From: an uncultured Acidimicrobiaceae bacterium
GTDB taxonomy: Bacteria > Actinomycetota > Acidimicrobiia > Acidimicrobiales > RAAP-2
Direction of reading: 5' to 3'
NCBI GenBank assembly: GCA_963849155.1
Contig: CAWKGL010000003.1
Location: forward strand, 32,123 to 96,122
Length of the DNA stretch: 64,000 nt
Every line of letters starts with the position of its first letter. Positions within the stretch are counted from its first letter, which is position 1. Of this stretch, positions 30,668 through 61,402 are shown in pieces. A program made the translations under genes and the position numbers. The notes beneath the pieces are model-generated. The model ran no database searches, was not told where the DNA came from, and saw only the letters and a list, made by a program, of their open reading frames with translations.

Positions 30668-32649
30668 GGGCCTTCGGGCGACGCGTGGCTCGCGATCTCG
30701 AGTGCGAGTCGTGCGCGAAACTGCTCGACGCCCACGCCACGTTCGGGGTCGTTCGAACCGCGTGCGTTCACGCCGAGCGTGGTGTCGGCGACGTCGTCGT
30801 CGCCCACGACCAGGATGTAGGGGATCTTCTCCAGTTTCGCGCGTCGGATTCGCGCCCCGAGCGGCTCGTTGGCTTCTTCGAGTCCCACCCGAACGCCGTC
30901 AGCACCCAGCACGGCGGCGACCTCGGCGGCGTAGCGGTCGTGGTCATCGCGCACGCCGAGCACCCGTACTTGCTCGGGACTGAGCCACGTGGGCATGTTG
31001 CCCGCGTAGTGCTCGATGAGGATCGCCATGAAGCGCTCCACCGATCCGAACAACGCGCGATGGATCATGATCGGACGGGTGCGTGCGTTGTCCGCGCTGA
31101 CGTAACTCGCCTCGAAACGTTGCGGCGTCTGGAAGTCCAATTGGATCGTGGACAACTGATGGGTCCGTCCGATGGCGTCGCGCGCCTGGACCGAGATCTT
31201 GGGGCCGTAGAAGGCGCCGCCGCCCTCGTCGAGCACGAGTTCGAGTCCCACGCTGTTGGCCACTCGCTCCAGGGTGGCTTCGGCCTCGGCCCACTCCTCG
31301 TCGCTGCCCACGGCCTTGCCCTCGGGGCGCGTCGAGAGCTCGAGGTAGAAGTCGTTGAGTCCGAAATCGCGCAACAGGTTCAAGACGAAGTTGAGCAGAC
31401 TGGTCAACTCGTCACTCATCTGTTCACGAGTGCAGAAGATGTGCGCGTCGTCCTGGGTCATGCCACGCACGCGCGTCAGACCGTGCACGGATCCGGACAG
31501 CTCGTAGCGGTAGACCGAACCGAACTCGAAGAGGCGAAGGGGCAGCTCGCGGTAACTGCGTTGGCGCGATTTGAAGATCAAGACGTGGAACGGGCAGTTC
31601 ATGGGCTTGAGGTAGTACTGCTGTCCGTCGTCGAGATCCATCGGGGGGTACATCGAATCCGCGAACCATTGAAGGTGACCCGAGGTCTCAAAGAGTTCGG
31701 ATTTGGCGATGTGCGGGGTGTTCACGAACTCGTAGCCACCCTCGACGTGGCGTTGGCGCGAATACTCCTCCATCACCCGACGCATCGTCCCGCCCTTGGG
31801 ATGAAACACCGCCAAGCCAGGACCGATTTCGCTCGGGAAGGAGAACAGGTCGAGTTCGGCCCCAAGACGTCGGTGGTCGCGCTTCTCGGCCTCCTCGAGC
31901 TGGGTGAGGTGGGCCGCCAGGGCCTTCTCGCTCTCCCAGGCGGTGCCGTAGATGCGCTGGAGTTGCGGACGCTTCTCGTCGCCGCGCCAGTAGGCCCCCG
32001 CGACGCGCATCAGCTTGAAGTGACCCAGTCGCGAGGTCGACGGCACGTGAGGGCCACGACAAAGGTCAGTGAAGGACGGCGAATTCGAGTACGTCGAAAC
32101 CACCGACGCGCTCTCGACCTCGCCGAGGTCCTCGTCGCTGGCGCCGGCCTTGACGGCGTTGATGATCTCGACCTTGAACGGCTGGTCCTCGAACAGCGCG
32201 AGACCCTCGTCGTAGGAGTACTCGTGACGCGTGAAGGGCTGGTCCTCGTTCACGATGGCGCGCATCTCGTCCTCGATCCGCGCGAGGTCGTCGTCGCTGA
32301 AGTGCTGTCCACCCGGTAGTTCGAAGTCGTAGTAGAAACCGTTCTCGATCGCGGGTCCAATCGCGTAGTGCGCACCGGGCCAGAGACGGGTCACCGCTTG
32401 GGCCAAGACGTGGGCGGTCGAGTGGCGAAGGATGTCGCGGCCGTGCGAGGAAGTGGGGGTCACGATCGAGACCATCGCGCCGTCGGTGAGCGGACTCGCG
32501 AGGTCGCTCAAGCGACCGTCGATCTCGATGGCCAGTGCGTCCTTGGCGAGTCGCGCCCCGATGGACGCCGCGAGGTCCTTTCCGGTCGCCCCCGCGGGCA
32601 GCGAACGCGCACTGCCGTCGGGCAGGAGTACGTCAATATCCGACATCAT
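30664..32649 (-). CDS. thrS: Threonine--tRNA ligase
   Basis: TGS domain, LRHSTAHVLAQAV, DLCRGPHV, RDHRRLG, KPMNCPFH, GLTRVRGMTQDDAH, FYGPKI and HRALFGSVERF. Confidence 0.97.
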   Translation of the reverse strand: MMSDIDVLLPDGSARSLPAGATGKDLAASIGARLAKDALAIEIDGRLSDLASPLTDGAMVSIVTPTSSHGRDILRHSTAHVLAQAVTRLWPGAHYAIGPAIENGFYYDFELPGGQHFSDDDLARIEDEMRAIVNEDQPFTRHEYSYDEGLALFEDQPFKVEIINAVKAGASDEDLGEVESASVVSTYSNSPSFTDLCRGPHVPSTSRLGHFKLMRVAGAYWRGDEKRPQLQRIYGTAWESEKALAAHLTQLEEAEKRDHRRLGAELDLFSFPSEIGPGLAVFHPKGGTMRRVMEEYSRQRHVEGGYEFVNTPHIAKSELFETSGHLQWFADSMYPPMDLDDGQQYYLKPMNCPFHVLIFKSRQRSYRELPLRLFEFGSVYRYELSGSVHGLTRVRGMTQDDAHIFCTREQMSDELTSLLNFVLNLLRDFGLNDFYLELSTRPEGKAVGSDEEWAEAEATLERVANSVGLELVLDEGGGAFYGPKISVQARDAIGRTHQLSTIQLDFQTPQRFEASYVSADNARTRPIMIHRALFGSVERFMAILIEHYAGNMPTWLSPEQVRVLGVRDDHDRYAAEVAAVLGADGVRVGLEEANEPLGARIRRAKLEKIPYILVVGDDDVADTTLGVNARGSNDPERGVGVEQFRARLALEIASHASPEGP

Positions 32650-41484: not shown

Positions 41485-42148
41485 CCCGGCACCGCTGCTC
41501 GTAGAGCAGGTCCGCGACGGACTCGAGGGGTTCGAGTTCGTAACCGAGCACCGAGGCGAGAATCGCGTCGGCGAACCAGGGGTTTTGTGCGAGTACCGGA
41601 CCGTGGGCGTAAGTCGCCCAGATCGTGTCGACGCGGTAACCGTCGTTCAGTCCGTCGTTTCCCTTTCCGTGTTCGACGCGACCGAGCGGCGCCACGCCGG
41701 CACCGAGCGTCGTGCGACCCCCGTGGTTCTCGAAGCCGACCAGCAGACGCGAGCCCACCCGCACGCGAAGTTCGCCCACTGAGCGCGTGGTCCCTCGCGT
41801 GGTCGTCACGTCGCAGAGTCCCAGGCCGGCGTACTGGTCGTCTCCCTCGACGCTGAAACTCGTGCCGAGGATCTGCAGACCCGCACAGACCGCCACCACG
41901 GTCGCACCGTTAGCCACGCGCTCGGCCAGTGACGTGCGCGCCAACACGTCGCGGGCGAGCCGTTGGGGACCGTCCTCTCCCCCACCGAGCAGGTAGATCG
42001 ACGCGTCGGGCAGGGCGTCGTGAAGACGCATGGCGCTCAGTACCGCCTCTTCGCCGCGCGCGCGGGCGCGCTGGGCGAGCACCACGGCGTTGCCCGCGTC
42101 GCCGTAGGTTCCGAGCAGGTCGGGCAGGATGTTCACGATCCTCAGCAC
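41471..42148 (-). CDS. gatD: Glutamine amidotransferase GatD (CobQ-like)
   Basis: LLGTYGDAGNA, LGGGED, VCAGLQILG, GFENHGG and TYAHGPVLAQNP; overlaps the murT stop. Confidence 0.9.
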   Translation of the reverse strand: MLRIVNILPDLLGTYGDAGNAVVLAQRARARGEEAVLSAMRLHDALPDASIYLLGGGEDGPQRLARDVLARTSLAERVANGATVVAVCAGLQILGTSFSVEGDDQYAGLGLCDVTTTRGTTRSVGELRVRVGSRLLVGFENHGGRTTLGAGVAPLGRVEHGKGNDGLNDGYRVDTIWATYAHGPVLAQNPWFADAILASVLGYELEPLESVADLLYEQRCRAIRS

Positions 42149-43356
42149 GGCACCGTCCTCGCGAGCCACTCGGAAAAGGCGGTGTAGTTCGCGATGAGCG
42201 GCACCGACTGCGCGTCCTCGGGTAACGCCTGCACGTCGTCAACCACGCGGTAGCTCACCTCGGCGTAGTGAAGCCTCGTCGCGAGGTCGAGGCGCCGGTC
42301 CCCGAGGCACCACACGAGGTGTCCGCGCAATTTCTCGAAGGGGACGTCGTAGAGCCACGAGGGGTCGTGACCGTCGGCGACTCGGGCGTTGATCGCGATC
42401 CACACGTCGCTCGCGTCGGGCTCGAGCGCGGACAACAAGGCGTCAAAACCCGCCGGGTTCTTCGCGAGCAGGAGACGCACCGTGCGTCCGCTCCAGCGTC
42501 GCAACGTGAAGCGACCCGCCACCGCCGCCACGTCGCTCATGCGCGCCAGGGCGACCACTGCGTCTTCGCCCACCTCGACGAGCGCGGTGAGCGCCATCGC
42601 GGCGTTCGCCTCGTTGAAGGCGCCGGGCAGCGCGAGCCTCATCTCGTGGCGCGTGCCCGCGATCACCAGACCGTCGACCAATGACGTTGTGACGACGGTG
42701 GGCTTGGCGAAACCGCACGAGCATCGCCACGTTCCACCGACGTGTTCGAGAGCGAGCGTGCACTGAGGGCACGAGCGCGCGTCGTCGAGCCAGGGCGTTG
42801 GCACGTCGCACCAACGGACGTTCGAGGCGTCGCTCGCCGCCCAGACCACGAGAGGATCGTTCGCGTTGGCCACGACCACGAGTTCGTCGTGACGAGCGAG
42901 CGCGTGGCGCCACCGGTCGGCCAATTTGCGAACCTCGTTGGCCCGATCGAGTTGGTCGCGCGAGAGGTTGAGTAACACCACCACCCTTGCCCCGACTTGC
43001 TCGAGGACCGAGCCCAGCCACGCCTCGTCCACCTCGAGCACGACGCGCGAGGACCGAGAACCCGCGAGGGCGGCCACGTGGCCTGGAGGCATGTTCGAGC
43101 CCGTCTCGTTGGTCACGACGTCACCCCCCCAACCAGCCGCGACGAGGGCGGTGGTCGTGGTCTTGCCGTTGGTCCCGCTCACCAGGATCGTCGAACGGCC
43201 TCGGGCGAGTGACGCGAGTAAATCGGGCGACAGGGCCAGTCCGAGCCGGCCCCCCGCTACCGTGCCCGCTCCGCGCTTGGCGGCCCGTGAAGCCCAATTC
43301 AGGCCCCGTAGGGCGGCGATAGCGACCCGATCGCGCAGTGAGGGGCCTTTGCTCAT
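42142..43356 (-). CDS. murT: MurT (Mur ligase family, DUF1727), lipid II isoglutamyl synthase subunit
   Basis: VSGTNGKTTTT, VLEVDE, LNLSRDQLDR, CPQC...WRCSCG zinc knuckle, LAKNPAG and DGHDPSWLYDV. Confidence 0.9.
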   Translation of the reverse strand: MSKGPSLRDRVAIAALRGLNWASRAAKRGAGTVAGGRLGLALSPDLLASLARGRSTILVSGTNGKTTTTALVAAGWGGDVVTNETGSNMPPGHVAALAGSRSSRVVLEVDEAWLGSVLEQVGARVVVLLNLSRDQLDRANEVRKLADRWRHALARHDELVVVANANDPLVVWAASDASNVRWCDVPTPWLDDARSCPQCTLALEHVGGTWRCSCGFAKPTVVTTSLVDGLVIAGTRHEMRLALPGAFNEANAAMALTALVEVGEDAVVALARMSDVAAVAGRFTLRRWSGRTVRLLLAKNPAGFDALLSALEPDASDVWIAINARVADGHDPSWLYDVPFEKLRGHLVWCLGDRRLDLATRLHYAEVSYRVVDDVQALPEDAQSVPLIANYTAFSEWLARTVPC

Positions 43357-47861: not shown

Positions 47862-50800
47862 CTAGAGCAGCGTCGCCATCACGGTCACGTTTCGATTGCG
47901 AGCACGACCAGCGAGCGTGTTGTTCGACGCCGCCGGAGCCGTCGAACCCAACGACAACGTGGTCATCTTGATCGACGTGGTCACGCCGTCGGCGATCAGC
48001 ACCGTTTGCAGGTAGAGCTCGACGCTGAGCGCGCGGTTGTGTCCCAAGTTCAAGTTGTACGCCGCACCGCCCGCGATGTCGGTGTAACCCGTGATCACGA
48101 TGGACGTTGCGCCAATGGCCTTCAGTTTGGCGGCGAACGTTCGGATCTGGCTCTGCATCGTTGGGGTCAGCGCCGCCGAACCCACCGCGAAGGGAAAGAG
48201 CAGCAAGAAGGCCTCGTTGGACGAATCCACCACGACCCCTACCGACTCTGACGCCCGCTTGCCCGATTTCACGTACCCCTGGGACAACAACGTGTGATCG
48301 CCCGCGCTGATCGTCGACGGTATGGCCAGATTCGCCAAATACGTGCCATTGGGGCCAACGCGCACCGCTCCGAGCAAGGTGCTGCCCGGCGCGAGGTAGA
48401 CGTCAACCAGAGAACCGGGGTAGAAGCCCGACCCACTGACGTGAGCGGTACCCCCTTGCACGAGGACGATCGTGAAACCGGTCGGCGTGCTCACGGTCGA
48501 GGACGCGCTGATGGTCATGCTGAGACCCGCTCCGCTCACCACGATGTCGGTGTTGCCCACGGCCACGCTCGCCGTGGTCGTCGAACCATTGAGTTGGGTC
48601 GCTGACGCGAGACCCGGCGAGAGCTGCGTGCTCAGCGTCGTAGCGACGACGCCGGTGCCCGAGGGACCGGCGACGATTGGATTCGGCGTGGGAACCTCGT
48701 TGGTTAAGGTCGACGCCGCTGAGGTCGCGGCGGGAGACGTCGTCGTGGCGACGACCGAAATTGCGTACGGCGTGCCGTTGGTGAGGCCTTCAATCAAGCA
48801 CGACGTGGTGCTCGTCGTGCACGTCGCCGCACCCGGGCTGAGCGTCACCGTGTAGCTCAGACCCTGGGACGACGTGGCGCCCGACGGTGCGCTCCAGGTG
48901 ACCAGCACCTCGCCGTCGCCGGGTAACGCCGAAAGATTTGAGACCAGCCCCGAGGTCGACGAGGCGTTCACCGTGAGCGGCAGCGTCACGGTCGCACTCT
49001 GACCGCCATTGTTCACCGTCAGGGTCACGTTGAACGTTCCCGACACCGTAGGTGTGCCCGAAATGACACCGCCGGTCGAACAGGTGAGACCCGCCGGCAG
49101 ACCCGCGCACGCCCACGAGCTCGTGCCGGTCCCGCCTTGTTCAGTCAACGGCTCGTTATAGGACTGGCCCACCGTCGCGTTGGGCAGCGTCGCGTTCGCC
49201 ACGACCAGTCCCGTCCCGACCACGAGTGTGTACCCTTGGGAGGCCCGAGCACCATTGGAGTCGGACACGGTGACCGTCACCGAATAGGAACCCGCAGGGG
49301 CGCTCACCGTGCCCACAATGTCACCGGTGGCATCGATCGAGAGCCCCGCGGGAAGACCCGTCGCGGTCCAGACGAAGGGCGCCACCCCTCCGGTCTCGTT
49401 GATTGGCGCCGCGTACACCGCACCCGTCACGGTGGAGGGAAGGCTGAGCGTCGAGATCACGGGTGTGCTGGGGCTACCACCACCGCCACCACCGCCGCCA
49501 GAACTACCAGGGGTGATGGTCTGAGGTGACGAAGACGCCGCGTTATAGCCACCCGACTGAGGCACCGAAGCCGTGACCGCGCACGGCGTCGAACTCGTGA
49601 AGGTCACCACTTGGCTGGGCGCGACGCCCGCAATCGAGCAGCCACCGGTCACGCTGAAGTCCGGCGTGGCGCCACTAGATGACGTGGCTACCGGCGTGTA
49701 GGTGGAATTAATTGCGGGTGATGACGGCACCGATGACGTAATCGTCACCGTGGGGGTCGCCAGGATGAAGGTCTGGACCGAGGTCGCTGAGGTCGCCGTG
49801 GCGTACGTCGAGTCGGCGGCGATGGTTGCGGTCACGTCGCAGGTTCCCGACGAAGTCGCCTGAAGCGTCGAAATCGAGACGGTACAGCCCGACGCGGTGC
49901 CGCCCGCCACGACCGTATAGTTCACCGCGCCGGTACCCGAGAAGCCGCTCGACGTCAGGATCACGGTGTACGTGACACCGTTAAATGCTGTCGTGGTCGC
50001 GGGCACCGTGATGGCCTGCGTGTTCAGACCCGCGCTAAATGTCTGCGGCGAGGACGACGCCGCGGCATAGCCAGAAGTCGCCATCGAGGACGCGGTGATG
50101 TTGCACGGCGTGGTACTCGTAAAGGTGACGACTCCCCCACTGAGTGAACAGCCGCCGCTCACGCTGTACGTCACGGGCAGACCCGCTGACGATACGGCAG
50201 TGGGCGTGTACGTCGAACCGATCGTGGGCGAACTCGACGGGGTTGAGGTGAAGCTCACCGTCGGCGTCGCCTGGGTGAACGTCTGGGCGGACGCCGCTGA
50301 CGTCGTCGCGCTGTACATCGAATCCGCCGTAATCGTCGCCGTGACGAAACAAGTTCCCGACGACGTGGCGATCAACGTGGCGCCCGAGACCGAGCATCCC
50401 GACGCGGTTCCCAGTGGACTCGACGCGAGTGCGTAGGAAATCATACCGGTGCCCGAATAGCCGCTCGAAGTGAGGTTGACCGTGAAGGTCGCACCGTTAT
50501 AGACCGTCGACGTCGTGGGAACGCTGATCGTTTGGGACGTCAAGCCCGCGGTCACGGTCTGAGGCGACGACGACGCGGCGTTGTAGCCGGTCGCCGCGGG
50601 AACCGAAGCGGTGATGTCACAAGGGGTGGAGCTCGTGAAGGTCACCACTTGGCTAGGCGCGACGCCCGAGATCGAACAGCCGCCGGTCACGCTGAAAACC
50701 GGCGTCACGCCACTGGACGACGTCGCCACGGGCGTGTAGGTGGAATTGGTCGTCGGCAATGACGGCGCCGTTGACGTGATCGTCACCGTCGGAGTCGCGA

Positions 50801-53800
50801 GGTCAAAGGTCTGGGCCGAAGGCGCCGACGTTGCCGTGTTGTAGGTCGAGTCGGCGGTGATGGTTGCGGTGACGTTGCAGTAGCCCGGCGAGGTCGCGAT
50901 CAGCGTTGCTTGGGAAATAGAGCAGCCGGAGGCCGTACTCCCGTTGGCGAGTGTGTAGCTCACCATGCCGGTACCCGAGTAGCCACTCGACGTCAGGGTC
51001 ACGCTGAAGCCGGTCCCGTCATAGTCCGTGGTGGTCGCCGGAACCGTGATTGATTGGGAGCTAAGGCCCGCCGTTATTGTTTGAGGCGGACTCGCCAGTG
51101 CCGCGAAGTAATTGGGCGTGACCTGAGTGGAAGCCATGACGACACACGGCGTGGTACTCGTAAAGGTGACGACGCCCCCACTGAGTGAACAGCCGCCGCT
51201 CACGCCGAAGGTGACCGGAAGGCCCGCCGACGATATAGCAGTGGGCGTGTACGTCGAGCCGATGGTGGGCGAGCTCGGCTGGGTTGAGGTGAAGCTCACC
51301 GTCGGCGTCGCCTGGGTGAAGGTCTGGGCGGACGGTGCCGACGTCACGGCGCCGTAGGTGCCGTCACCAGCCTTGGTTGCGGTGACGTAACAGACGCCGT
51401 ACGTCGTCGCCGTGAGGGTTGAATTATCTATCGAGCATTGGGTTGCCGTGCTGTTGTTGGCAAGCGCGTACGTGACCATGCCGGTACCCGAACCGCCGGT
51501 CGATGAGAGGGTGACCGTATAGGTGGTCCCGTTAAAGGGCGTCGAAGTCGACGGAACCACGAGGGTGGACTGCGAATTCACGACAGCAGTAGTGGTTTGA
51601 GACGGCGTAGCCAGCGCCGCGAAGTAATTAGGCGTGACCGGGGTGGAGGCCATAATGACACACGGCGTGGCACTCGTGAAGGTGACGACTCCCCCGTTCA
51701 ATGTGCAGCCACCACTCACGCCGAAGGTGACGGGCAGGCCCGCCGACGATACGGCGGTGGGCGTGTACGTCGAACCGATGGTGGGCGAGCTCGGCTGGGT
51801 TGAGGTGAAGCTCACCGTCGGCGTTGCCTGGGTGAAGGTCTGGGCGGACGGTGTCGAGGTAGCCGAAAGGTAGGTGCCGTCGGCCGCGATGGTAGCGGTC
51901 ACGTTGCAGTAGCCCGACGAGGTCGCCTGAAGCGTCGAATTCGAGATGGTGCAGCCTGACGCGGTACCGCCCGCCACGACCGTGTAGTACACCGCGCCGG
52001 TACCCGAGAAGCCGATCGAAGTCAGGGTCACCGAGTAGGCCGAACCGTTGTACGGCGTACTCGAGGTGGGCACCGAGATCGTCTGTGAATCGAGACCCGC
52101 GGTCACGGTCTGGGGTGAGGACGACGAGGCGGCGTAGTCCGTCGAAGCTGGCACCGAGGCCGTGATAGCGCACGGCGTCGTGCTCGTGAAGGTGACGACT
52201 TGGTCGGGTGCGGTACCGGCGATCGAACAGCCCCCGGTCACGCTAAAGGTAGGCGTCACGCCACTTGAAGAGGTCGCGACAGGCGTGTAGTTGGAATTGA
52301 CGGTGGGCGATGTCGGCGCCGTTGACGTGATGGTCACCGTTGGGGTCGCGAGCGTGAAGGTCTGTGCCGAGGGCGACGACGTCGCGGCACTATAGGTGCC
52401 GTCGGCCGCGATGGTGGCGGTCACGTTGCAGTAGCCCGACGAGGTCGCCTGAAGCGTCGAATTCGAGATGGTGCAGCCTGACGCGGTGCCGCCCGCCACG
52501 ACCGTGTAGTTCACCGCGCCGGTACCCGAGAAGCCACTCGCCGTCAGGGTCACCGAGTAGGCCGAACCGTTGTACGCCGTACTCGTAGTAGGCACCGAGA
52601 TCGTCTGTGAGTCGAGACCTGCGGTCACGGTCTGGGGTGAGGATGACGAAGCGGCGTAGTCCGTCGAAGCCGGCACCGAAGCCGTGATGTTGCACGGCGT
52701 CGAGCTCGTGAAAGTAACGATCTGATTAGGCGCGGTGCCGGCGATCGAACAGCCCCCGGTCACGCTGAAGGTCGGTGTCGCGCCGCTTGAAGAGGTCGCG
52801 ACGGGCGTGTAGGTGGAATTGACGGTGGGCGCACTCGGCGCCGTTGACGTGATGGTCACCGTTGGGGTCGCGAGCGTGAAGGTCTGTGCCGACGGCGCCG
52901 ACGTGGCGGCGCCGTAGGTGCCGTCGCCGGCCTTGGTCGCGGTCACGTTGCAGTAGCCCGTCGAGGTCGCGATCAAGGTCGAACTCGAGATGGAACAACC
53001 CGAGGCGGTGCTGCCGTTCGCGAGTACGTACATGACGCCACCGGTACCCGAGCCGCCGGTGGTCGAGAGGGTGACCGTGAAAGAGGTGCCGTTATAGGGC
53101 GTCGTCGTCGTCGGCACGACGAGCGTCGCCTGGGTGTTGAGTCCCGCGGTCACGGCCTGAGGTGACGAGGACGACGCGGCGTAGCCCGTCGAGGCCGGCA
53201 CCGAGGCGGTGATGTCACACGGCGTCGTGCTCGTGAAGGTGACGACTTGGTTGGGCGCGGTGCCGGCGATCGAACAGCCCCCGGTCACGCTGAAGGTCGG
53301 CGTCACGCCGCTTGAAGACGTCGCGACGGGCGTGTAGGTGGAATTGACGGTCGGTGATATTGGTGCCGATGACGTGATGGTCACCGTTGGGGTCGCGAGC
53401 GTGAAGGTCTGTGCCGACGGCGCCGACGTGGCAGCGCCGTAGGTGCCGTCGGCGGCGATGGTGGCGGTCACGTTGCAGTAGCCCGTCGAGGTCGCGATCA
53501 AGGTCGAACTCGAGATGGAACAACCCGAGGCGGTGCTGCCGTTCGCGAGTACGTACATGATGCCACCGGTACCCGAGAAGCCACTCGCCGTCAGGGTCAC
53601 CGAGTAGGCCGAACCGTTGTACGGCGTGCTCGTGGTGGGCACCGAAATTGACTGGGTGTTAAGACCCGCGGTCACGGTCTGGGGTGAGGACGACGATCCG
53701 TTGTAGCCCGTCGTCGCCGGTACCGTGGCGGTGATGTTGCACGGCGTCGTGCTCGTGAAGGTGACGACTTGGTTGGGCGCGGTGCCGGCGATCGAACAGC

Positions 53801-56800
53801 CCCCGGTCACGCTGAAGGTCGGTGTCGCGCCGCTTGAAGAGGTCGCGACGGGCGTGTAGGTGGAATTGACGGTGGGCGCACTCGGCGCCGTTGACGTGAT
53901 GGTCACCGTTGGGGTCGCGAGCGTGAAGGTCTGTGCCGACGGCGCCGACGTGGCAGCGCCGTAGGTGCCGTCGCCGGCCTTGGTCGCGGTCACGTTGCAG
54001 TAGCCCGTCGAGGTCGCGATCAAGGTCGAACTCGAGATGGAACAACCCGAGGCGGTGCTGCCGTTCGCGAGTACGTACATGACGCCACCGGTACCCGAGC
54101 CGCCGGTGGTCGAGAGGGTGACCGTGAAAGAGGTGCCGTTATAGGGCGTCGTCGTCGTCGGCACGACGAGCGTCGCCTGGGTGTTGAGTCCCGCGGTCAC
54201 GGCCTGAGGTGACGAGGACGACGCGGCGTAGCCCGTCGAGGCCGGCACCGAGGCGGTGATGTCACACGGCGTCGTGCTCGTGAAGGTGACGATCTGATTG
54301 GGCGCGGTGCCGGCGATCGAACAGCCCCCGGTCACGCTGAAGGTCGGCGTTGCGCCGTTGGACGACGTCGCGACGGGCGTGTAGGTGGAATTGACGGTAG
54401 GTGATGTCGGTGCCGATGACGTGATGGTCACCGTTGGGGTCGCGAGCGTGAAGGTCTGTGCCGACGGCGCCGACGTGGCAGCGCCGTAGGTGCCGTCGCC
54501 GGCCTTGGTGGCGGTCACGTTGCAATAACCCGTCGAGGTCGCGATCAAGGTCATGTAATTCGTTCCCGACAGCGCACAGCCTGACGCGCTGCTCCCGGCC
54601 GCCAGCGCGTAGGTCACGGTACCGGTACCCGAGCCGCCGGTGGTCGAGAGCGTGACGGTGAAGGCGGTGCCGTTATAGGGCGTCGTCGTCGTCGGCACGA
54701 CGAGCGTCGCCTGGGTGTTGAGACCCGCGGTCACGGCCTGGGGTGACGAGGACGAGGCGGCGTAGCCCATCGAGGCCGGCACCGAGGCGGTGATATCACA
54801 CGGCGTCGTACTCGTGAAGGTGACGACTTGCTTGGGCGCGGTACCGGCGATCGAACAGCCCCCGGTCACGCTGAAGGTAGGCGTAACGCCGCTTGAAGAC
54901 GTCGCGACGGGCGTGTAGGTGGAATTGACGGTGGGCGATGTCGGCGCCGTTGACGTGATGGTCACGGTCGGGGTCACCAGCGTGAAGGTCTGTGCCGACG
55001 GGGCCGACGTGGCAGCACTGTAGGTACCGTCGCCAGCCTTGGTCGCGGTGACGTTGCAGTAGCCCGACGAGGTCGCGATCAGGGTTACGTTATTTGTTCC
55101 CGACAGCGAACAGCCCGACGCGGTGCTCCCGGCCGCCAGCGCGTAGGTCACCGTACCGGTACCCGAGCCGCCGGTGGTCGAGAGCGTGACGGTGAAGGCG
55201 GTGCCGTTATAGGGCGTTGTCGTCGTCGGCACGACGAGCGTCGCCTGAGTGTTGAGTCCCGCGGTCACGGTCTGAGGCGAGGACGACGACGCGGCGTAGT
55301 CCGTCGAAGCCGGCACCGAAGCCGTGATGTTGCACGGCGTCGAGCTCGTGAAGGTGACGACTTGGTTGGGCGCGGTGCCGGCGATCGAACAGCCCCCGGT
55401 CACGCTGAAGGTCGGTGTCGCGCCGCTTGAAGAGGTCGCGACGGGCGTGTAGGTGGAATTGACGGTGGGCGTACTCGGCGCCGTTGACGTGATGGTCACG
55501 GTCGGGGTGGCCAACGTGAAGGTCTGTGCCGACGGCGCCGACGTGGCGGCGCTGTAGGTGCCGTCGCCGGCCTTGGTCGCGGTGACGTTGCAGTAGCCCG
55601 ACGAGGTCGCGGTCAAGGTCATGTAATTCGTTCCCGACAGCAAACAGCCCGACGCGGTGCTCCCGGCCGCCAGCGCGTAGGTGACCGTACCGGTACCCGA
55701 GCCGCCGGTGGTCGAGAGGGTGACCGTGTAAGGGGTGCCGTTATAGGGCGTCGTCGTCGTCGGTACGACGAGCGTCGCCTGGGCGTTGAGTCCCGCGGTC
55801 ACGGCCTGAGGTGACGAGGACGACGCGGCGTAGCCGGTCGCGGCCGGCACCGAAGCGGTGATGTCACACGGCGTCGTGCTCGTGAAGGTAACGATCTGAT
55901 TGGGCGCGGTGCCGGCGATCGAACAGCCGCCGGTCACGCTGAAGGTCGGTGTCGCGCCGTTGGACGACGTCGCGATGGGCGTGTAGGTGGAACCCACCGT
56001 GGGCGCACTCGGCGCCGTTGACGTGATGGTCACGGTCGGGGTCACCAGCGTGAAGGTCTGTGCCGACGGGGCCGACGTGGCGGCGCTATACGAACCATCG
56101 GCGGCAATAGTGGCGGTGACGTTGCAGTAGCCCGACGAGGTCGCGGTCAAGGTCACGTTATTCGTTCCCGACAGCAAACAGCCTGACGCGGTGCTCCCGG
56201 CCGCCAGCGCGTAGGTGACCGTACCGGTACCCGAGAAGCCAGTCGCGGTCAAGGTCACCGTGAAGGAAGAACCGTTGTACGGCGTGCTCGTGGCAGGCAC
56301 GGCAATGCTTTGTGAGTTGAGACTCGCGGTGATCGCCTGAGGTGACGACGACGACGATGCGTAGCCCGTCGCCGCGGGCACCGACGCGATGACGTTGCAT
56401 TGAGTCGTACTCGTGAAGGTAACGATTTGATTGGGCGCGGTGCCGGCGATCGAACAGCCCCCGGTCACACCAAAAATAGGCGTCACGCCGTTGGACGACG
56501 TCGCGGCGGGCGTGTAGGTGGAGCCCACCGTGGGCGTACTCGGCGCCGTTGAGGTGATGGTCACGGTCGGGGTCACCAGCGTGAAGGTCTGTGCCGACGG
56601 GGCCGACGTGGCGGCGCTGTAGGTGCCGTCGCCGGCCTTGGTCGCGGTGACGTTGCAGTAGCCCGACGAGGTCGCGATCAGGGTTACGTTATTTGTTCCC
56701 GACAGCGAACAGCCTGACGCGGTGCTCCCGGCCGCCAGCGCGTAGGTGACCGTACCGGTACCCGAGCCGCCGGTGGTCGAGAGGGTGACCGTGAAAGAGG

Positions 56801-59261
56801 TGCCGTTATAGGGCGTCGTCGTCGTCGGTACGACGAGCGTCGCCTGGGCGTTGAGTCCCGCGGTCACGGCCTGAGGTGACGAGGACGACGCGGCGTAGCC
56901 GGTCGCGGCCGGCACCGAAGCGGTGATGTCACACGGCGTCGTGCTCGTGAAGGTAACGATCTGATTGGGCGCGGTGCCGGCGATCGAACAGCCGCCGGTC
57001 ACGCTGAAGGTCGGCGTCGCGCCACTAGAAGAGGTCGCGACGGGCGTGTAGGTGGAATTGACGGTCGGTGATGTCGGCGCCGCTGACGTGATGGTCACGG
57101 TCGGCGTCGCGAGCGTGAAGGTCTGTGCCGACGGGGCCGACGTGGCGGCGCTGTAGGTGCCGTCGCTGGCCTTGGCGGCGGTGACGTTGCAATAACCCGT
57201 CGACGTCGCCATCAGGGTCACGTTATTCGTTCCCGACAGCGAACAGCCTGACGCGGTACTCCCGGCCGCCAGCGCGTAGGTCACGGTACCGGTACCCGAA
57301 CCTCCCGTCGTCGAGAGGTTAACCGTGTAAGAGGTGCCGTTATAGGGCGTCGTCGTCGTCGGCACGACCAGTGTGGCCTGCGAATTGAGGTTCACCGTGA
57401 TCTGATACGCCTGGTAGTTGACGAGGCCGAACGAGTCGGTGACCTGGATCGTGAACGTGCACGTACCCGTGGTACTGGGCGATCCGGAAAGTATGCTGCC
57501 ACTGAGCGAAAGGCCCAACGTCGTCAAACACGACTGTCCTGTCGTGGCGGGTTGAGAGATGGTCCCGGCGGCGCCCGCCACCACGGCGTAGGTGTAGGTC
57601 CCGTTACCGGCGCCTCCGGTGAACGTTTGAGAGTATGCCTGGCCCACTGAACCGCTCGTGAGCGTATAGATAGTCGAGTAGACCGCTTCGTACGGATTGG
57701 TTGTTCCGTTGTTGGGCGATATCTGAGGCGTGTTCGACAGCTCGGTGACCGTGTTGTTCCCTTGCTCGGTCAGCCACACTTCGTTACCGGTCGAAGCGAG
57801 GAAGCGAGGTCCCGCACCGTTCGGCAACGCGATGATCGCCTCGTTGGACGTCGTGCTGACGTTTCCCGCGGTGATCGCACTAATCGGTATCTGCACCATG
57901 TCCGACGTGCCCGACGACGTTCCAGTACCGGCGACCCAGACGTCGGTGCCGTCACTGATGACGCCCTGTGAGACCACGGGGATGCTGAAAGGTGAACCCG
58001 TGATCTGGTTACCGGTCGCCGCGTCCAGCACCCACATCTTCGCGCTGGTGTCACTCGTGATGTAGACGTAACGTCCATCGCTGAAGATTCCGTACGCGCC
58101 GGGAAAGGTGGAGGCTGGGAACTTCGACGCGTTCACGACCGCGCCCGTCGATTCGTTGATCTCCGCGATCGAGCCCGTCCCGTCGCCTCCCTCGGCCACC
58201 CACACGTGGCTCCCGTCACAAGAGACCTGGTTCGCCGACACGTCACTGCCAAGGTTGATTGTCAAGTTCGACGTCGTGCCCCCGACGGGAATCCGGTAGA
58301 GGTTGTTGGCGAAGGTCGAGGACTGTTCGGCCGTCCAGACGTCGGTCCCGTCATCGCAAATGCCGTAGAACTGGTCGTTCGAAGACAGACTGACGAACGA
58401 CGGAGTTCCCGGGGTGTCGGTGGATCCCGAGATCGGCACCTTCTCAACACTGTTGGACCCGCCGAGAAAGAGGTTGATCCAGAGGTAGTTCCCGTCGATG
58501 GCGATGCCGGTTGGATTTCCCGTGAGCGTGATGGTGTGCACGAGCGCGCTCGTCGTGAGGTTGAACGCCTCGACCGTGTCACCGGTGAGACCCGCGACCC
58601 AGACGACGTTGCCATCCGAGGCGACACCAATGGGGTCACCGGGTGCCGAAACCGTGGCGCGCAGCCCCGGGTTGGTCACGGTCCCCGGCCACGTCGCCTG
58701 GGGAATGACGGGATACTGCGACACAACGACCACGTTGGACGACGCACTGACCGCGGTCGTGTCCACCGAGGTCTTCAACGTGAACTGAGAACTCGACAGG
58801 GTCCCCGCCACCGGGTTGGTGAATCCGTAGAGGGCGAACACGCCCGCAGTCGACGCGCTCAATTGACAGCCACTGCCCGCCAAGGTGATGGTCACCGTTG
58901 ACCCGCTCACCACCGCCGTCGGCGCGCAGGTCCCGGTGAATCCCGACACGGTCGCGACGTTGGTTGACGTGGGCATTATCAGTGCCGAGGGGAACGTGAC
59001 GGTGATCGTCGAGCCCAGTGCCGTCGAGATGGTGCCCGCCGGCGTGAAGCCGATGTCGTAGTCGGTGTAGAGACCGGCCGCCGTCGTCGTGGGCGTAAAG
59101 GTCACCGAGGAGACCGACGAGGCCGAGGCGACCGCCTCAAAACCAATAACCGAAACGACCGACGAAACCACAACGACGCTCAGAAGCGTCGCAACGCTCC
59201 TGAAGAAAGCCCGACGAGCCATATTCAGTTGACTACTTTCTTTTCGAATCTTCAGGAACAT
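47862..59261 (-). CDS. Giant secreted repeat protein (3799 aa): signal/TM, beta-propeller, Ig-like repeats, FN3, C-terminal OmpA-like domain
   Basis: Uninterrupted ORF. It has a hydrophobic N-terminus, P.G(IV)A.DG..(VL)W(VI) blades, 15 Thr/Ser-rich units, putative Ig domains (LPAGL, GVISGTPT), FN3 (GDGEVLVTWSAP...YAISVVA) and an OmpA-like C-terminus (FAVGSAAL, ITGYTD, YNLNLGHNRA.SV, RNRNV). An alternative start is at 59222. Confidence 0.9.
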   Translation of the reverse strand: MFLKIRKESSQLNMARRAFFRSVATLLSVVVVSSVVSVIGFEAVASASSVSSVTFTPTTTAAGLYTDYDIGFTPAGTISTALGSTITVTFPSALIMPTSTNVATVSGFTGTCAPTAVVSGSTVTITLAGSGCQLSASTAGVFALYGFTNPVAGTLSSSQFTLKTSVDTTAVSASSNVVVVSQYPVIPQATWPGTVTNPGLRATVSAPGDPIGVASDGNVVWVAGLTGDTVEAFNLTTSALVHTITLTGNPTGIAIDGNYLWINLFLGGSNSVEKVPISGSTDTPGTPSFVSLSSNDQFYGICDDGTDVWTAEQSSTFANNLYRIPVGGTTSNLTINLGSDVSANQVSCDGSHVWVAEGGDGTGSIAEINESTGAVVNASKFPASTFPGAYGIFSDGRYVYITSDTSAKMWVLDAATGNQITGSPFSIPVVSQGVISDGTDVWVAGTGTSSGTSDMVQIPISAITAGNVSTTSNEAIIALPNGAGPRFLASTGNEVWLTEQGNNTVTELSNTPQISPNNGTTNPYEAVYSTIYTLTSGSVGQAYSQTFTGGAGNGTYTYAVVAGAAGTISQPATTGQSCLTTLGLSLSGSILSGSPSTTGTCTFTIQVTDSFGLVNYQAYQITVNLNSQATLVVPTTTTPYNGTSYTVNLSTTGGSGTGTVTYALAAGSTASGCSLSGTNNVTLMATSTGYCNVTAAKASDGTYSAATSAPSAQTFTLATPTVTITSAAPTSPTVNSTYTPVATSSSGATPTFSVTGGCSIAGTAPNQIVTFTSTTPCDITASVPAATGYAASSSSPQAVTAGLNAQATLVVPTTTTPYNGTSFTVTLSTTGGSGTGTVTYALAAGSTASGCSLSGTNNVTLIATSSGYCNVTATKAGDGTYSAATSAPSAQTFTLVTPTVTITSTAPSTPTVGSTYTPAATSSNGVTPIFGVTGGCSIAGTAPNQIVTFTSTTQCNVIASVPAATGYASSSSSPQAITASLNSQSIAVPATSTPYNGSSFTVTLTATGFSGTGTVTYALAAGSTASGCLLSGTNNVTLTATSSGYCNVTATIAADGSYSAATSAPSAQTFTLVTPTVTITSTAPSAPTVGSTYTPIATSSNGATPTFSVTGGCSIAGTAPNQIVTFTSTTPCDITASVPAATGYAASSSSPQAVTAGLNAQATLVVPTTTTPYNGTPYTVTLSTTGGSGTGTVTYALAAGSTASGCLLSGTNYMTLTATSSGYCNVTATKAGDGTYSAATSAPSAQTFTLATPTVTITSTAPSTPTVNSTYTPVATSSSGATPTFSVTGGCSIAGTAPNQVVTFTSSTPCNITASVPASTDYAASSSSPQTVTAGLNTQATLVVPTTTTPYNGTAFTVTLSTTGGSGTGTVTYALAAGSTASGCSLSGTNNVTLIATSSGYCNVTATKAGDGTYSAATSAPSAQTFTLVTPTVTITSTAPTSPTVNSTYTPVATSSSGVTPTFSVTGGCSIAGTAPKQVVTFTSTTPCDITASVPASMGYAASSSSPQAVTAGLNTQATLVVPTTTTPYNGTAFTVTLSTTGGSGTGTVTYALAAGSSASGCALSGTNYMTLIATSTGYCNVTATKAGDGTYGAATSAPSAQTFTLATPTVTITSSAPTSPTVNSTYTPVATSSNGATPTFSVTGGCSIAGTAPNQIVTFTSTTPCDITASVPASTGYAASSSSPQAVTAGLNTQATLVVPTTTTPYNGTSFTVTLSTTGGSGTGGVMYVLANGSTASGCSISSSTLIATSTGYCNVTATKAGDGTYGAATSAPSAQTFTLATPTVTITSTAPSAPTVNSTYTPVATSSSGATPTFSVTGGCSIAGTAPNQVVTFTSTTPCNITATVPATTGYNGSSSSPQTVTAGLNTQSISVPTTSTPYNGSAYSVTLTASGFSGTGGIMYVLANGSTASGCSISSSTLIATSTGYCNVTATIAADGTYGAATSAPSAQTFTLATPTVTITSSAPISPTVNSTYTPVATSSSGVTPTFSVTGGCSIAGTAPNQVVTFTSTTPCDITASVPASTGYAASSSSPQAVTAGLNTQATLVVPTTTTPYNGTSFTVTLSTTGGSGTGGVMYVLANGSTASGCSISSSTLIATSTGYCNVTATKAGDGTYGAATSAPSAQTFTLATPTVTITSTAPSAPTVNSTYTPVATSSSGATPTFSVTGGCSIAGTAPNQIVTFTSSTPCNITASVPASTDYAASSSSPQTVTAGLDSQTISVPTTSTAYNGSAYSVTLTASGFSGTGAVNYTVVAGGTASGCTISNSTLQATSSGYCNVTATIAADGTYSAATSSPSAQTFTLATPTVTITSTAPTSPTVNSNYTPVATSSSGVTPTFSVTGGCSIAGTAPDQVVTFTSTTPCAITASVPASTDYAASSSSPQTVTAGLDSQTISVPTSSTPYNGSAYSVTLTSIGFSGTGAVYYTVVAGGTASGCTISNSTLQATSSGYCNVTATIAADGTYLSATSTPSAQTFTQATPTVSFTSTQPSSPTIGSTYTPTAVSSAGLPVTFGVSGGCTLNGGVVTFTSATPCVIMASTPVTPNYFAALATPSQTTTAVVNSQSTLVVPSTSTPFNGTTYTVTLSSTGGSGTGMVTYALANNSTATQCSIDNSTLTATTYGVCYVTATKAGDGTYGAVTSAPSAQTFTQATPTVSFTSTQPSSPTIGSTYTPTAISSAGLPVTFGVSGGCSLSGGVVTFTSTTPCVVMASTQVTPNYFAALASPPQTITAGLSSQSITVPATTTDYDGTGFSVTLTSSGYSGTGMVSYTLANGSTASGCSISQATLIATSPGYCNVTATITADSTYNTATSAPSAQTFDLATPTVTITSTAPSLPTTNSTYTPVATSSSGVTPVFSVTGGCSISGVAPSQVVTFTSSTPCDITASVPAATGYNAASSSPQTVTAGLTSQTISVPTTSTVYNGATFTVNLTSSGYSGTGMISYALASSPLGTASGCSVSGATLIATSSGTCFVTATITADSMYSATTSAASAQTFTQATPTVSFTSTPSSSPTIGSTYTPTAVSSAGLPVTYSVSGGCSLSGGVVTFTSTTPCNITASSMATSGYAAASSSPQTFSAGLNTQAITVPATTTAFNGVTYTVILTSSGFSGTGAVNYTVVAGGTASGCTVSISTLQATSSGTCDVTATIAADSTYATATSATSVQTFILATPTVTITSSVPSSPAINSTYTPVATSSSGATPDFSVTGGCSIAGVAPSQVVTFTSSTPCAVTASVPQSGGYNAASSSPQTITPGSSGGGGGGGGSPSTPVISTLSLPSTVTGAVYAAPINETGGVAPFVWTATGLPAGLSIDATGDIVGTVSAPAGSYSVTVTVSDSNGARASQGYTLVVGTGLVVANATLPNATVGQSYNEPLTEQGGTGTSSWACAGLPAGLTCSTGGVISGTPTVSGTFNVTLTVNNGGQSATVTLPLTVNASSTSGLVSNLSALPGDGEVLVTWSAPSGATSSQGLSYTVTLSPGAATCTTSTTSCLIEGLTNGTPYAISVVATTTSPAATSAASTLTNEVPTPNPIVAGPSGTGVVATTLSTQLSPGLASATQLNGSTTTASVAVGNTDIVVSGAGLSMTISASSTVSTPTGFTIVLVQGGTAHVSGSGFYPGSLVDVYLAPGSTLLGAVRVGPNGTYLANLAIPSTISAGDHTLLSQGYVKSGKRASESVGVVVDSSNEAFLLLFPFAVGSAALTPTMQSQIRTFAAKLKAIGATSIVITGYTDIAGGAAYNLNLGHNRALSVELYLQTVLIADGVTTSIKMTTLSLGSTAPAASNNTLAGRARNRNVTVMATLL
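49520..57390 (-). repeat. 15 intragenic tandem repeats of about 520-534 bp (about 175 aa)
   Basis: The anchor CGATCGAACAGC recurs at 52220, 52742, 53267, 53789, 54314, 54848, 55382, 55916, 56447 and 56981 (spacing 522-534 bp). Five more diverged units lie near 49630-51700. The TPTV(T/S)(I/F)TS motif occurs 15 times. Boundaries are approximate. Confidence 0.92.
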
Positions 59262-60664: not shown

Positions 60665-61402
60665 ATGAAAACTCCACGAATCCTCGCCACCTCGGGCGGC
60701 TACGTCGCCGGACCGGTCCAGCAGTCGGTTCGCCTGGGATCGATGCTGCTCGACGCGCTCGAACTGACGGGCAAGGTCCGTCCCCGCGTCTGTCTGGTGC
60801 TCACCGCCACGGGTGATCCGTCGATGTACTACGCGATGTCCTACGAGGCGTTCAACGCCGCAGGCTGTGACGTGACCGAACTGAAGTTGTTCCCCCAGCC
60901 CTCGGCCGAGCCCGAAGAGCGTCTGTGCTCGAGTGACCTCGTGTGGGTGGGCGGCGGATCGGTGGCGAATCTCTTGGCTCTGTGGAGGCTGCACGGCGTC
61001 GACGACGCGATGCGAGAGGCCTGGACGCGCGGCGTGATCCTCGGTGGCGTCTCGGCGGGCAGTCTGTGCTGGCACGTCGGAGGCACGACGGACTCGTTCG
61101 GGCCCACGCTGCAGCCGGTCACGAACGGACTCGCCCTGCTCCCGTACGCGAACGGCGTGCACTACGACTCCGAAGAGCAACGACGACCGTTGCTGCATCA
61201 GCTGGTGCGAGACCAGGTACTGCCGCCGCTCGCTTACGCGACCGACGACCACGTCGGGATCTGGTACGAGGGACTCGAAGCGACGTCGGTCGTCGCGGAC
61301 TCGGCCACCGATGCAAACGCGGGACCCGCCGCCTACAAGGTGGAACTCGTCGACGGCGAGGTCCGCGAGACCCGTTACGGCGTCGGCACCAGTTTCTCTT
61401 AG
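60665..61402 (+). CDS. Peptidase E (S51 family)
   Basis: WVGGGSVANL, GVSAGS (nucleophile) and GVHYD. Confidence 0.88.
   Translation: MKTPRILATSGGYVAGPVQQSVRLGSMLLDALELTGKVRPRVCLVLTATGDPSMYYAMSYEAFNAAGCDVTELKLFPQPSAEPEERLCSSDLVWVGGGSVANLLALWRLHGVDDAMREAWTRGVILGGVSAGSLCWHVGGTTDSFGPTLQPVTNGLALLPYANGVHYDSEEQRRPLLHQLVRDQVLPPLAYATDDHVGIWYEGLEATSVVADSATDANAGPAAYKVELVDGEVRETRYGVGTSFS

Follow-up and report, generated by a model that had tools for sequence, protein, structure and literature searches.

The window analysed here, 64,000 nucleotides long, covers positions 32,123 to 96,122 of contig CAWKGL010000003.1 (assembly GCA_963849155.1) from an uncultured Acidimicrobiaceae bacterium. Its minus strand carries a giant gene at window positions 47862..59261, encoding a secreted multidomain protein of 3,799 amino acids, which is read here, with a probability of about 0.68, as a giant adhesin on the surface of a monoderm actinobacterium (probably one of the Acidimicrobiia), held non-covalently on the cell wall by a C-terminal OmpA-like domain. 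Coordinates below are those of the window, unless a contig is named, and all parts of the gene lie on the minus strand. The 11.4-kb open reading frame (ORF) noticed in the initial annotation is confirmed as single and uninterrupted; by simple arithmetic, 3,799 open codons would arise by chance with a probability of about 1e-42, at about 0.025 stops per codon and 65% GC. The mature protein has a mass of about 365 kDa, a pI of about 4.05 and a Thr plus Ser content of 35%. Both the head flank (57.3-59.6 kb) and the tail flank (47.5-49.7 kb) are reproduced, at 99% identity or above, by contigs assembled from soil metagenomes, in four independent runs.

The C-terminal domain, a putative peptidoglycan-binding domain, occupies residues 3689-3799 (47865..48197) and is basic, with a pI of about 10.3. 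It is the only domain found by Pfam when the whole protein is scanned, the remaining ones being recovered by a piecewise scan. The match to PF00691 covers residues 3691-3790 and profile positions 2-98 of 98, with an E-value of 1.6e-13 and 51.3 bits (cut-off 27.2). The last 162 residues match 34 OmpA-like chains of the PDB at E<=1e-3, the best being PA0833-PD, YiaD and M. tuberculosis ArfA. The aspartate of the GYTD motif (D3728) and the arginine of the NRA motif (R3743) align with their equivalents in these three proteins and are invariant in a five-sequence alignment of the tail; the N..L..RA and NR.V motifs are also kept in the alignments. NCBIfam reports for the tail a domain-level similarity only, to the YiaD, PA1041, YfiB and Pal models, and none of the equivalog cut-offs is reached, all scores being far below them. 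Membership in the OmpA-like family is assigned from sequence, which is deemed sufficient.

Directly before the OmpA-like domain lies an all-beta, immunoglobulin (Ig)-like domain (residues 3541-3688, 48198..48641), conserved together with it in relatives. It follows a fibronectin type III domain (fn3, PF00041; 48642..48941), matched at about residues 3448-3508 with an E-value of 1.6e-8 and 35.1 bits (cut-off 25), and two He_PIG domains within residues 3263-3440 (48942..49475; E-values 3.1e-12 and 2.4e-11; 47.2 and 44.3 bits, cut-off 24). The initial annotation had described Ig/FN3 modules and an OmpA-like C-terminus keeping the GYTD Asp and the NRA Arg, with neither an LPxTG-plus-transmembrane tail nor a C-terminal transmembrane segment. 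The first part is confirmed by Pfam and by the alignments, the match to OmpA_C included. The second is confirmed by reading the C-terminus, which runs ...GRARNRNVTVMATLL, ends in NRNVTVMATLL, and contains no LPXTG motif, no transmembrane or hydrophobic segment and no basic tail. Pfam scans of the whole protein and of its pieces found neither an SLH nor any other anchoring or lattice domain of surface layers (S-layers); no BON domain was matched in the same scans, and the protein does not belong to the ArfA-type BON-OmpA proteins.

The envelope in which this tail would act was evaluated from the gene content of the host genome, which measures 2.12 Mb, is contained in 4 contigs and is 96.4% complete. 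No match to Omp85/BamA, LpxC or Emb arabinosyltransferases was found in it, while control genomes matched as expected. Because these genes are absent, the host is monoderm by gene content, with neither a lipopolysaccharide outer membrane nor a mycolate-arabinogalactan envelope predicted; the monoderm state, which the initial annotation had presumed from the window, is thus upheld by the genome-wide search for outer-membrane genes. It also agrees with the cultured members of the class, which stain Gram-positive and whose walls mostly have meso-DAP (DAP, diaminopimelate; PMC12263773). Two genes of the window, for a mycothiol-dependent reductase and for MurT, fit Actinomycetota. The latter, a MurT-like ligase (Mur_ligase_M plus MurT_C; 42142-43356, minus strand), implies, as judged from its domains, amidation of the stem-peptide iso-glutamate, and the modification state of peptidoglycan could affect binding by OmpA-like domains. 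DapF and MurE are unusable as indicators of the wall diamino acid: lysine synthesis depends on DapF irrespective of the kind of wall, and the specificity of MurE cannot be read from its sequence.

OmpA-like tails are not confined to the giant gene. As the initial annotation had suggested might be found, other proteins of the genome carry them: ten ORFs in total, of 3799, 2166, 1446, 1109, 843, 641, 616, 439, 398 and 246 amino acids, end in such a domain. PF00691 scores over its cut-off in eight of the ten, and seven feature a signal-peptide-like start. As for the three exceptions, the 439-residue ORF corresponds to one fragment of the disrupted paralog described below, the 398-residue one starts inside a repeat, and the 2166-residue one has a hydrophobic segment about 70 residues in. 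The N-terminal modules include Listeria-Bacteroides repeats (Flg_new), leucine-rich-type repeats of the DUF285 family, SBBP propeller repeats and, as far as direct reading of the sequence tells, a beta-helix-like repeat region. A variable N-terminal part, combined with a constant C-terminal OmpA-like domain, is the pattern that would be expected of a shared retention module. Apart from the giant gene and the broken paralog, the ten comprise eight ORFs, of 246-2,166 amino acids, located on contigs C2 and C4 (L018-L025), with DUF285 repeats in 12 stretches. Several tails feature GNAT or GYA in place of GYTD, and may bind differently.

Sortases, the presence of which had also been raised as a point to be checked, are indeed encoded in the genome, but beside a candidate substrate of their own. 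Two adjacent sortase genes (contig C3:111698-116842, about 15.6 kb past the window end) adjoin an ORF of at least 1,191 amino acids. This ORF ends with ...IPTSAPQTGAGG (...PQTGAGG), followed by a hydrophobic segment and by RRRRNA, and reaches to about 40 bases from the contig end. A crude genome scan revealed no other convincing sortase substrate. Since at least ten OmpA-tailed proteins stand against a single apparent sortase substrate, the OmpA-like tail may tentatively be seen as the signal by which surface proteins are generally retained in this genus of Acidimicrobiia, a proposal which is given slightly less than even odds; in the giant proteins it would take the form of a conserved wall-spanning cassette, with shuffled heads and stalks. 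If this holds, monoderm walls would display proteins in a further, distinct way that has not been described.

The same tails would also be compatible with a protein released into the surroundings, whose OmpA-like domain binds the peptidoglycan of neighbours or of debris, or another polymer, or binds only weakly, the protein acting as a secreted scaffold for biofilms or aggregates. Non-covalent anchors are reversible, and OmpA C-domains can act in trans, on the sacculi of foreign Gram-positive bacteria; moreover, MurT in the window points to stem-peptide amidation. Yet the occurrence of an OmpA-like domain at the C-terminus of ten distinct proteins is easier to reconcile with one shared retention module than with ten peptidoglycan-targeting tools, and the conserved proximal cassette and the hinge likewise fit retention better, so that a released protein is considered unlikely.

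Comparison with relatives indicates which parts of the giant protein are constant. The paralog on contig C4 (C4:5850-11295, minus strand, L026) is 53% identical in the N-terminal domain, 78% in the propeller, 79% in the following He_PIG domain and 54% in the tail (51-61% in its parts), whereas its stalk repeat is of another kind (...VATFYVTDTT...). At least four reading frames share its sequence, so that it is either a decaying pseudogene or the result of an assembly error in repeats. In other genomes, relatives of the tail, at 70-72% identity, are found on contigs titled as metagenome-assembled genomes of Acidimicrobiaceae, from bog and soil. Two relatives, L013 and L014, are cut by contig ends, and keep the order stalk, poly-Gly, two He_PIG, fn3, Ig-like and OmpA. 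L013 features a 13-Gly linker and a different stalk unit, while L014 shares the Cys-pair stalk unit of the giant protein. The contig of L013 (CAJCJA010000046.1) is titled 'Candidatus Saccharibacteria bacterium', although its tail, like that of two Acidimicrobiaceae genomes, is 72% identical to that of the giant protein; the title is probably a mislabel.

A further relative, P0294, is complete, with 4,427 amino acids, and is named 'OmpA-like peptidoglycan-associated protein' in its sources. It is composed of several NHL-propeller modules, a stalk of MBG_2 repeats, a Gly/Ser/Pro-rich linker, one He_PIG, fn3, Ig-like and OmpA domains, in this order, and its signal appears to be of the typical cleavable type (...ATRASA|TT). 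On the basis of the comparisons with L013, L014, the C4 paralog and P0294, the tail cassette is conserved, while heads and stalks are exchanged among relatives.

Searched exhaustively, the last 260 residues matched 181 cluster representatives at E<=1e-10, and one cluster contains P0294; for many of the representatives the match spans the Ig-like and OmpA-like domains at the extreme C-terminus, in proteins of up to 1,848 residues. A word-indexed search in which residues 3300-3799 were part of a full-length query returned only unrelated He_PIG-rich giants, none with PF00691, and is uninformative about the tail. Within the genus, OmpA-domain ORFs are present in 17 of 18 other genomes, usually several in each, and some of the frames reach 1,100-1,750 amino acids in spite of fragmented assemblies. 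In the survey of the class, such an ORF is present in 28 of the 50 sampled genera, nearly always with a length of 250-670 amino acids, and frames above 1,300 occur solely in the genome of the giant gene. The OmpA-like domain is common in monoderm actinobacteria and not new in the class; what seems peculiar to this lineage is that the domain is joined to giant multidomain proteins.

At the opposite end of the protein, residues 1-47 (59121..59261) read as a signal peptide, as expected from the signal or transmembrane segment of the initial annotation. A basic n-region is followed by a hydrophobic core at residues 22-41 and by an AxA site, AVASA|SS, at which cleavage is proposed from a reading of the sequence. 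An alternative start at Met14 gives MARRAFFR... (residues 14-21, 59199-59222), an n-region resembling the twin-arginine (Tat) motif RRxFL. Tat export is judged unlikely for a 365-kDa protein with 30 disulfide-bonded domains, and Sec export is assumed for this reason.

The N-terminal segment may alternatively escape cleavage and remain embedded in the cytoplasmic membrane, like that of ArfA, MotB or YiaD-type proteins, with the OmpA-like domain bound to the wall; the protein would then be a membrane-to-wall tether, either an envelope scaffold with both ends attached or a loop, and not a projecting adhesin. The hydrophobic core is long, about 20 residues; actinobacterial OmpA-like proteins such as ArfA, which is among the best PDB matches, are N-terminally membrane-anchored; and most OmpA-domain ORFs of the class, at 250-670 amino acids, have the size typical of tether-type proteins. 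A canonical AxA site follows the core, however, and P0294 has a signal typical of cleaved ones. In a tether, the propeller would lie beneath the wall and the 30 stalk domains would be left without an evident purpose; nor would a tether fit easily with N-terminal modules varying among the ten OmpA-tailed proteins, next to a constant tail. Such an arrangement is regarded as improbable.

For a cleaved and exported protein, the parts next to the signal peptide would form the distal head. Residues 48-185 (58707..59120) form an all-beta domain, 53% identical to that of the C4 paralog, for which neither a Pfam family match nor an NCBIfam equivalog was found. Residues 186-530 (57672..58706) are assigned to a seven-bladed beta-propeller of the YVTN/NHL type, the putative ligand-binding head. 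Here the Pfam matches of the protein itself, to NHL and YNCE, are below threshold (E-value 0.011), and membership in the propeller fold is established by the combination of homologs, model and structural comparison. A search with these residues retrieves YncE-like, YVTN and NHL propeller proteins at 21-34% identity, besides one fragment at 79%, and homologs of the head carry PF21783. The AlphaFold2 model, built on the sequences from the search, has a predicted local distance difference test score (pLDDT) of 80-93 over residues about 190-520, with about 28 strands; the same model is moderate for the N-terminal domain and poor for He_PIG. Foldseek groups the propeller with seven-bladed ones; the best fits are virginiamycin B lyase (TM-score 0.76-0.77, relative to the target) and 1l0q, a YVTN propeller from a surface-layer protein of an archaeon (22% identity, rmsd 3.1). 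The beta-propeller-like head of the initial annotation is thus borne out by a confident model, which suggests a propeller of the ligand-binding type seen on cell surfaces; the fold match does not identify the ligand. The head is completed by an Ig-like domain of the He_PIG family (PF05345; residues about 533-624, 57390..57665; E-value 1.6e-5, 25.7 bits, cut-off 24).

The stalk follows, at residues 625-3254 (49500..57389), as 15 tandem units. Since the unit, of about 531 nt, exceeds the 500-nt period limit of Tandem Repeats Finder, which reported nothing, the repeat was analysed at the protein level. Each unit, of about 177 amino acids, comprises a pair of domains, each about 90 residues long and holding one Cys pair, which gives 4 invariant Cys per unit and 30 domains in total. 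Units 1-10 are 72-96% identical to each other; for units 11-15, identity to the remaining units is 55-78%. The label "Ig-like" is given to these domains from their length, beta-strand pattern and Cys pairs. Pfam gives for a stalk unit a weak, sub-threshold match to Big_3_5; the profile of the 15 units has no sequence match in the PDB, and NCBIfam no equivalog for one unit. Eight glycines (residues 3255-3262, 49476..49499) separate the stalk from the tail cassette, as a putative hinge; a Gly-rich or Gly/Ser-rich linker is found at the equivalent place in L013 and P0294. The Ig-like repeats and the hinge of the initial annotation are in this way seen to correspond to 15 predicted two-domain units followed by Gly8.

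Head and composition may also recall a subunit of an S-layer or sheath covering the cell. The closest propeller by identity is the one from the archaeal S-layer protein 1l0q, and the sequence, very rich in Thr and Ser and acidic, resembles in this respect many S-layer glycoproteins. Pfam, however, detects no SLH or other lattice-forming domain; beads on a string with a flexible Gly hinge are typical of fibrillar adhesins, not of two-dimensional lattices, and closely related proteins have exchanged their heads and stalks. A covering layer of this kind is very improbable. Of the two proposals of the initial annotation, a giant adhesin or a sheath, nothing supports the latter, while an adhesin with an OmpA wall anchor is supported by the monoderm genome, the OmpA tails and the conserved cassette. 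Tether, released protein and covering layer are all less consistent than the anchored adhesin with the pattern of constant tail and variable heads.

A route by which the adhesin might reach the wall and be retained there can be proposed. The precursor would be exported N-terminus first, via Sec, and the signal peptide cut after AVASA. The OmpA-like domain would emerge last from the translocon and fold at the interface between membrane and wall, where Asp3728 and Arg3743 would bind the diaminopimelate of uncross-linked stem peptides, as in other members of the family. The two He_PIG domains, FN3 and the Ig-like domain, estimated at about 15-20 nm if extended, would span the wall as far as the Gly8 hinge. 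From there the 30 disulfide-bonded Ig-like domains of the stalk would project outward, for a length estimated in the order of 100 nm, bringing He_PIG, the seven-bladed propeller and the small N-terminal domain to the distal end, where their ligand might be, for instance, a polysaccharide, a particle or a second cell. The different charge of the two ends, a stalk with a pI of about 4 and a basic OmpA-like domain, is counted in favour of this arrangement. When fused to a cargo, the C-domain of E. coli OmpA attaches externally to the peptidoglycan shells of a number of lactic acid bacteria, and is not removed by washing with salt or urea (PMC11150769). Because such fusions bind Gram-positive sacculi, anchoring from the outside is physically possible (PMC11150769).

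Several points weigh against the anchored adhesin. The reading is built on sequence and models, binding and surface exposure being predicted. The AlphaFold2 model of the tail (residues 3530-3799, from the five-sequence alignment) is of low confidence, with a pLDDT of about 50; it features an all-beta domain, then a beta-alpha-beta-alpha-beta-alpha-beta succession, an order of elements that agrees with the OmpA-like fold, and Foldseek relates it to YfiB, Pal, MotB and TagL with probabilities of 0.84-1.0 and weak E-values, of 0.0096 or above. Several of the other OmpA tails of the genome are divergent, and fall below the Pfam cut-off in whole-protein scans. The hydrophobic core of the signal, at about 20 residues, could serve as a membrane anchor, its cleavage being putative. 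The meso-DAP walls of cultured members of the class may be extended only by analogy to the host, itself uncultured. The repeat array is fragmented or collapsed in short-read assemblies, so that the count of 15 units comes from the source assembly alone, and none of the RNA runs searched for the giant gene contains it.

The general layout has close parallels among known systems. LPXTG/sortase fibrillar adhesins (MSCRAMM-type, SasG/Aap, CshA-like) feature, also in monoderm hosts, the same order of signal, head, tandem Ig-like stalk and C-terminal wall anchor. The giant protein differs from them in lacking LPXTG, hydrophobic segment and basic tail, its anchor being, putatively, a folded, non-covalent OmpA-like domain. 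This domain, with the GYTD...N..L..RA and NR.V motifs, is shared with ArfA (Rv0899), Pal, YiaD, YfiB, PA0833 and MotB (E-values 1e-10 to 2e-13), and ArfA provides an example of its working in an actinobacterial envelope. These are, however, small proteins of 130-330 amino acids, membrane-anchored or lipoproteins, located in the periplasm or beneath the mycomembrane, while the present domain forms the C-terminus of a secreted protein of 365 kDa, and its host has no outer-membrane genes. LysM, SH3b, SLH, CWB1/2, GW and WXL follow the same logic, a folded domain retaining a secreted protein on the wall non-covalently; the expected ligand of the OmpA-like domain, in contrast, is the DAP of the stem peptide, and not a glycan or a secondary polymer. 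Diderm giant adhesins, either RTX proteins of the MpIBP/LapA type or AtaA, are comparable in size; their Ig-like repeats number in the tens, their ligand-binding modules are likewise distal, and the anchor of AtaA is stabilised by TpgA, an OmpA-like peptidoglycan binder. Those giants are exported by type I or type V secretion systems and retained in an outer membrane, for which the present host has no genes.

A reference review of wall display in monoderms tabulates LPXTG, LysM, WXL, SH3 types, SPOR, CW-7, CWB1/2, SLH and others, with no mention of OmpA, MotB or PF00691 (PMC5817068). The anchoring mode, called uncharacterised in the initial annotation, deserves the term in so far as it is absent from this catalogue; the domain itself does not, being present in 28 of 50 genera of the class and biochemically characterised elsewhere, as in ArfA. 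An OmpA domain by which giant surface proteins are anchored would be a variant not described before, in which domain, ligand and adhesin layout are each known, with no new biochemical principle. If the tails do anchor from outside a thick wall, a further non-covalent type would join sortase/LPXTG, LysM, SH3b, SLH, CWB, GW and WXL in the list of Gram-positive display systems. Surface proteins of abundant, nearly uncultured Acidimicrobiia from soil and bog would become recognisable from sequence, the genus offering a ready set of candidate adhesins, and a natural precedent would be available for the engineered OmpA C-domains that decorate Gram-positive particles. The question also bears on the fate of OmpA-type tethers after the loss of the outer membrane in Terrabacteria.

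Around the giant gene, a promoter scan of the upstream region found nothing, and neither of the two candidate start codons (residue 1 and Met14) is preceded by a clear Shine-Dalgarno sequence. No secretion-system gene was found among the neighbouring ORFs scanned. A Peptidase_S51 gene (60665-61402, plus strand) lies divergently upstream, an acyl-CoA dehydrogenase gene being located in between. The locus of P0294 also features a divergent upstream Peptidase_S51 gene (L027:6837-7532), and the shared arrangement suggests an orthologous locus, in which head and stalk would have been replaced.

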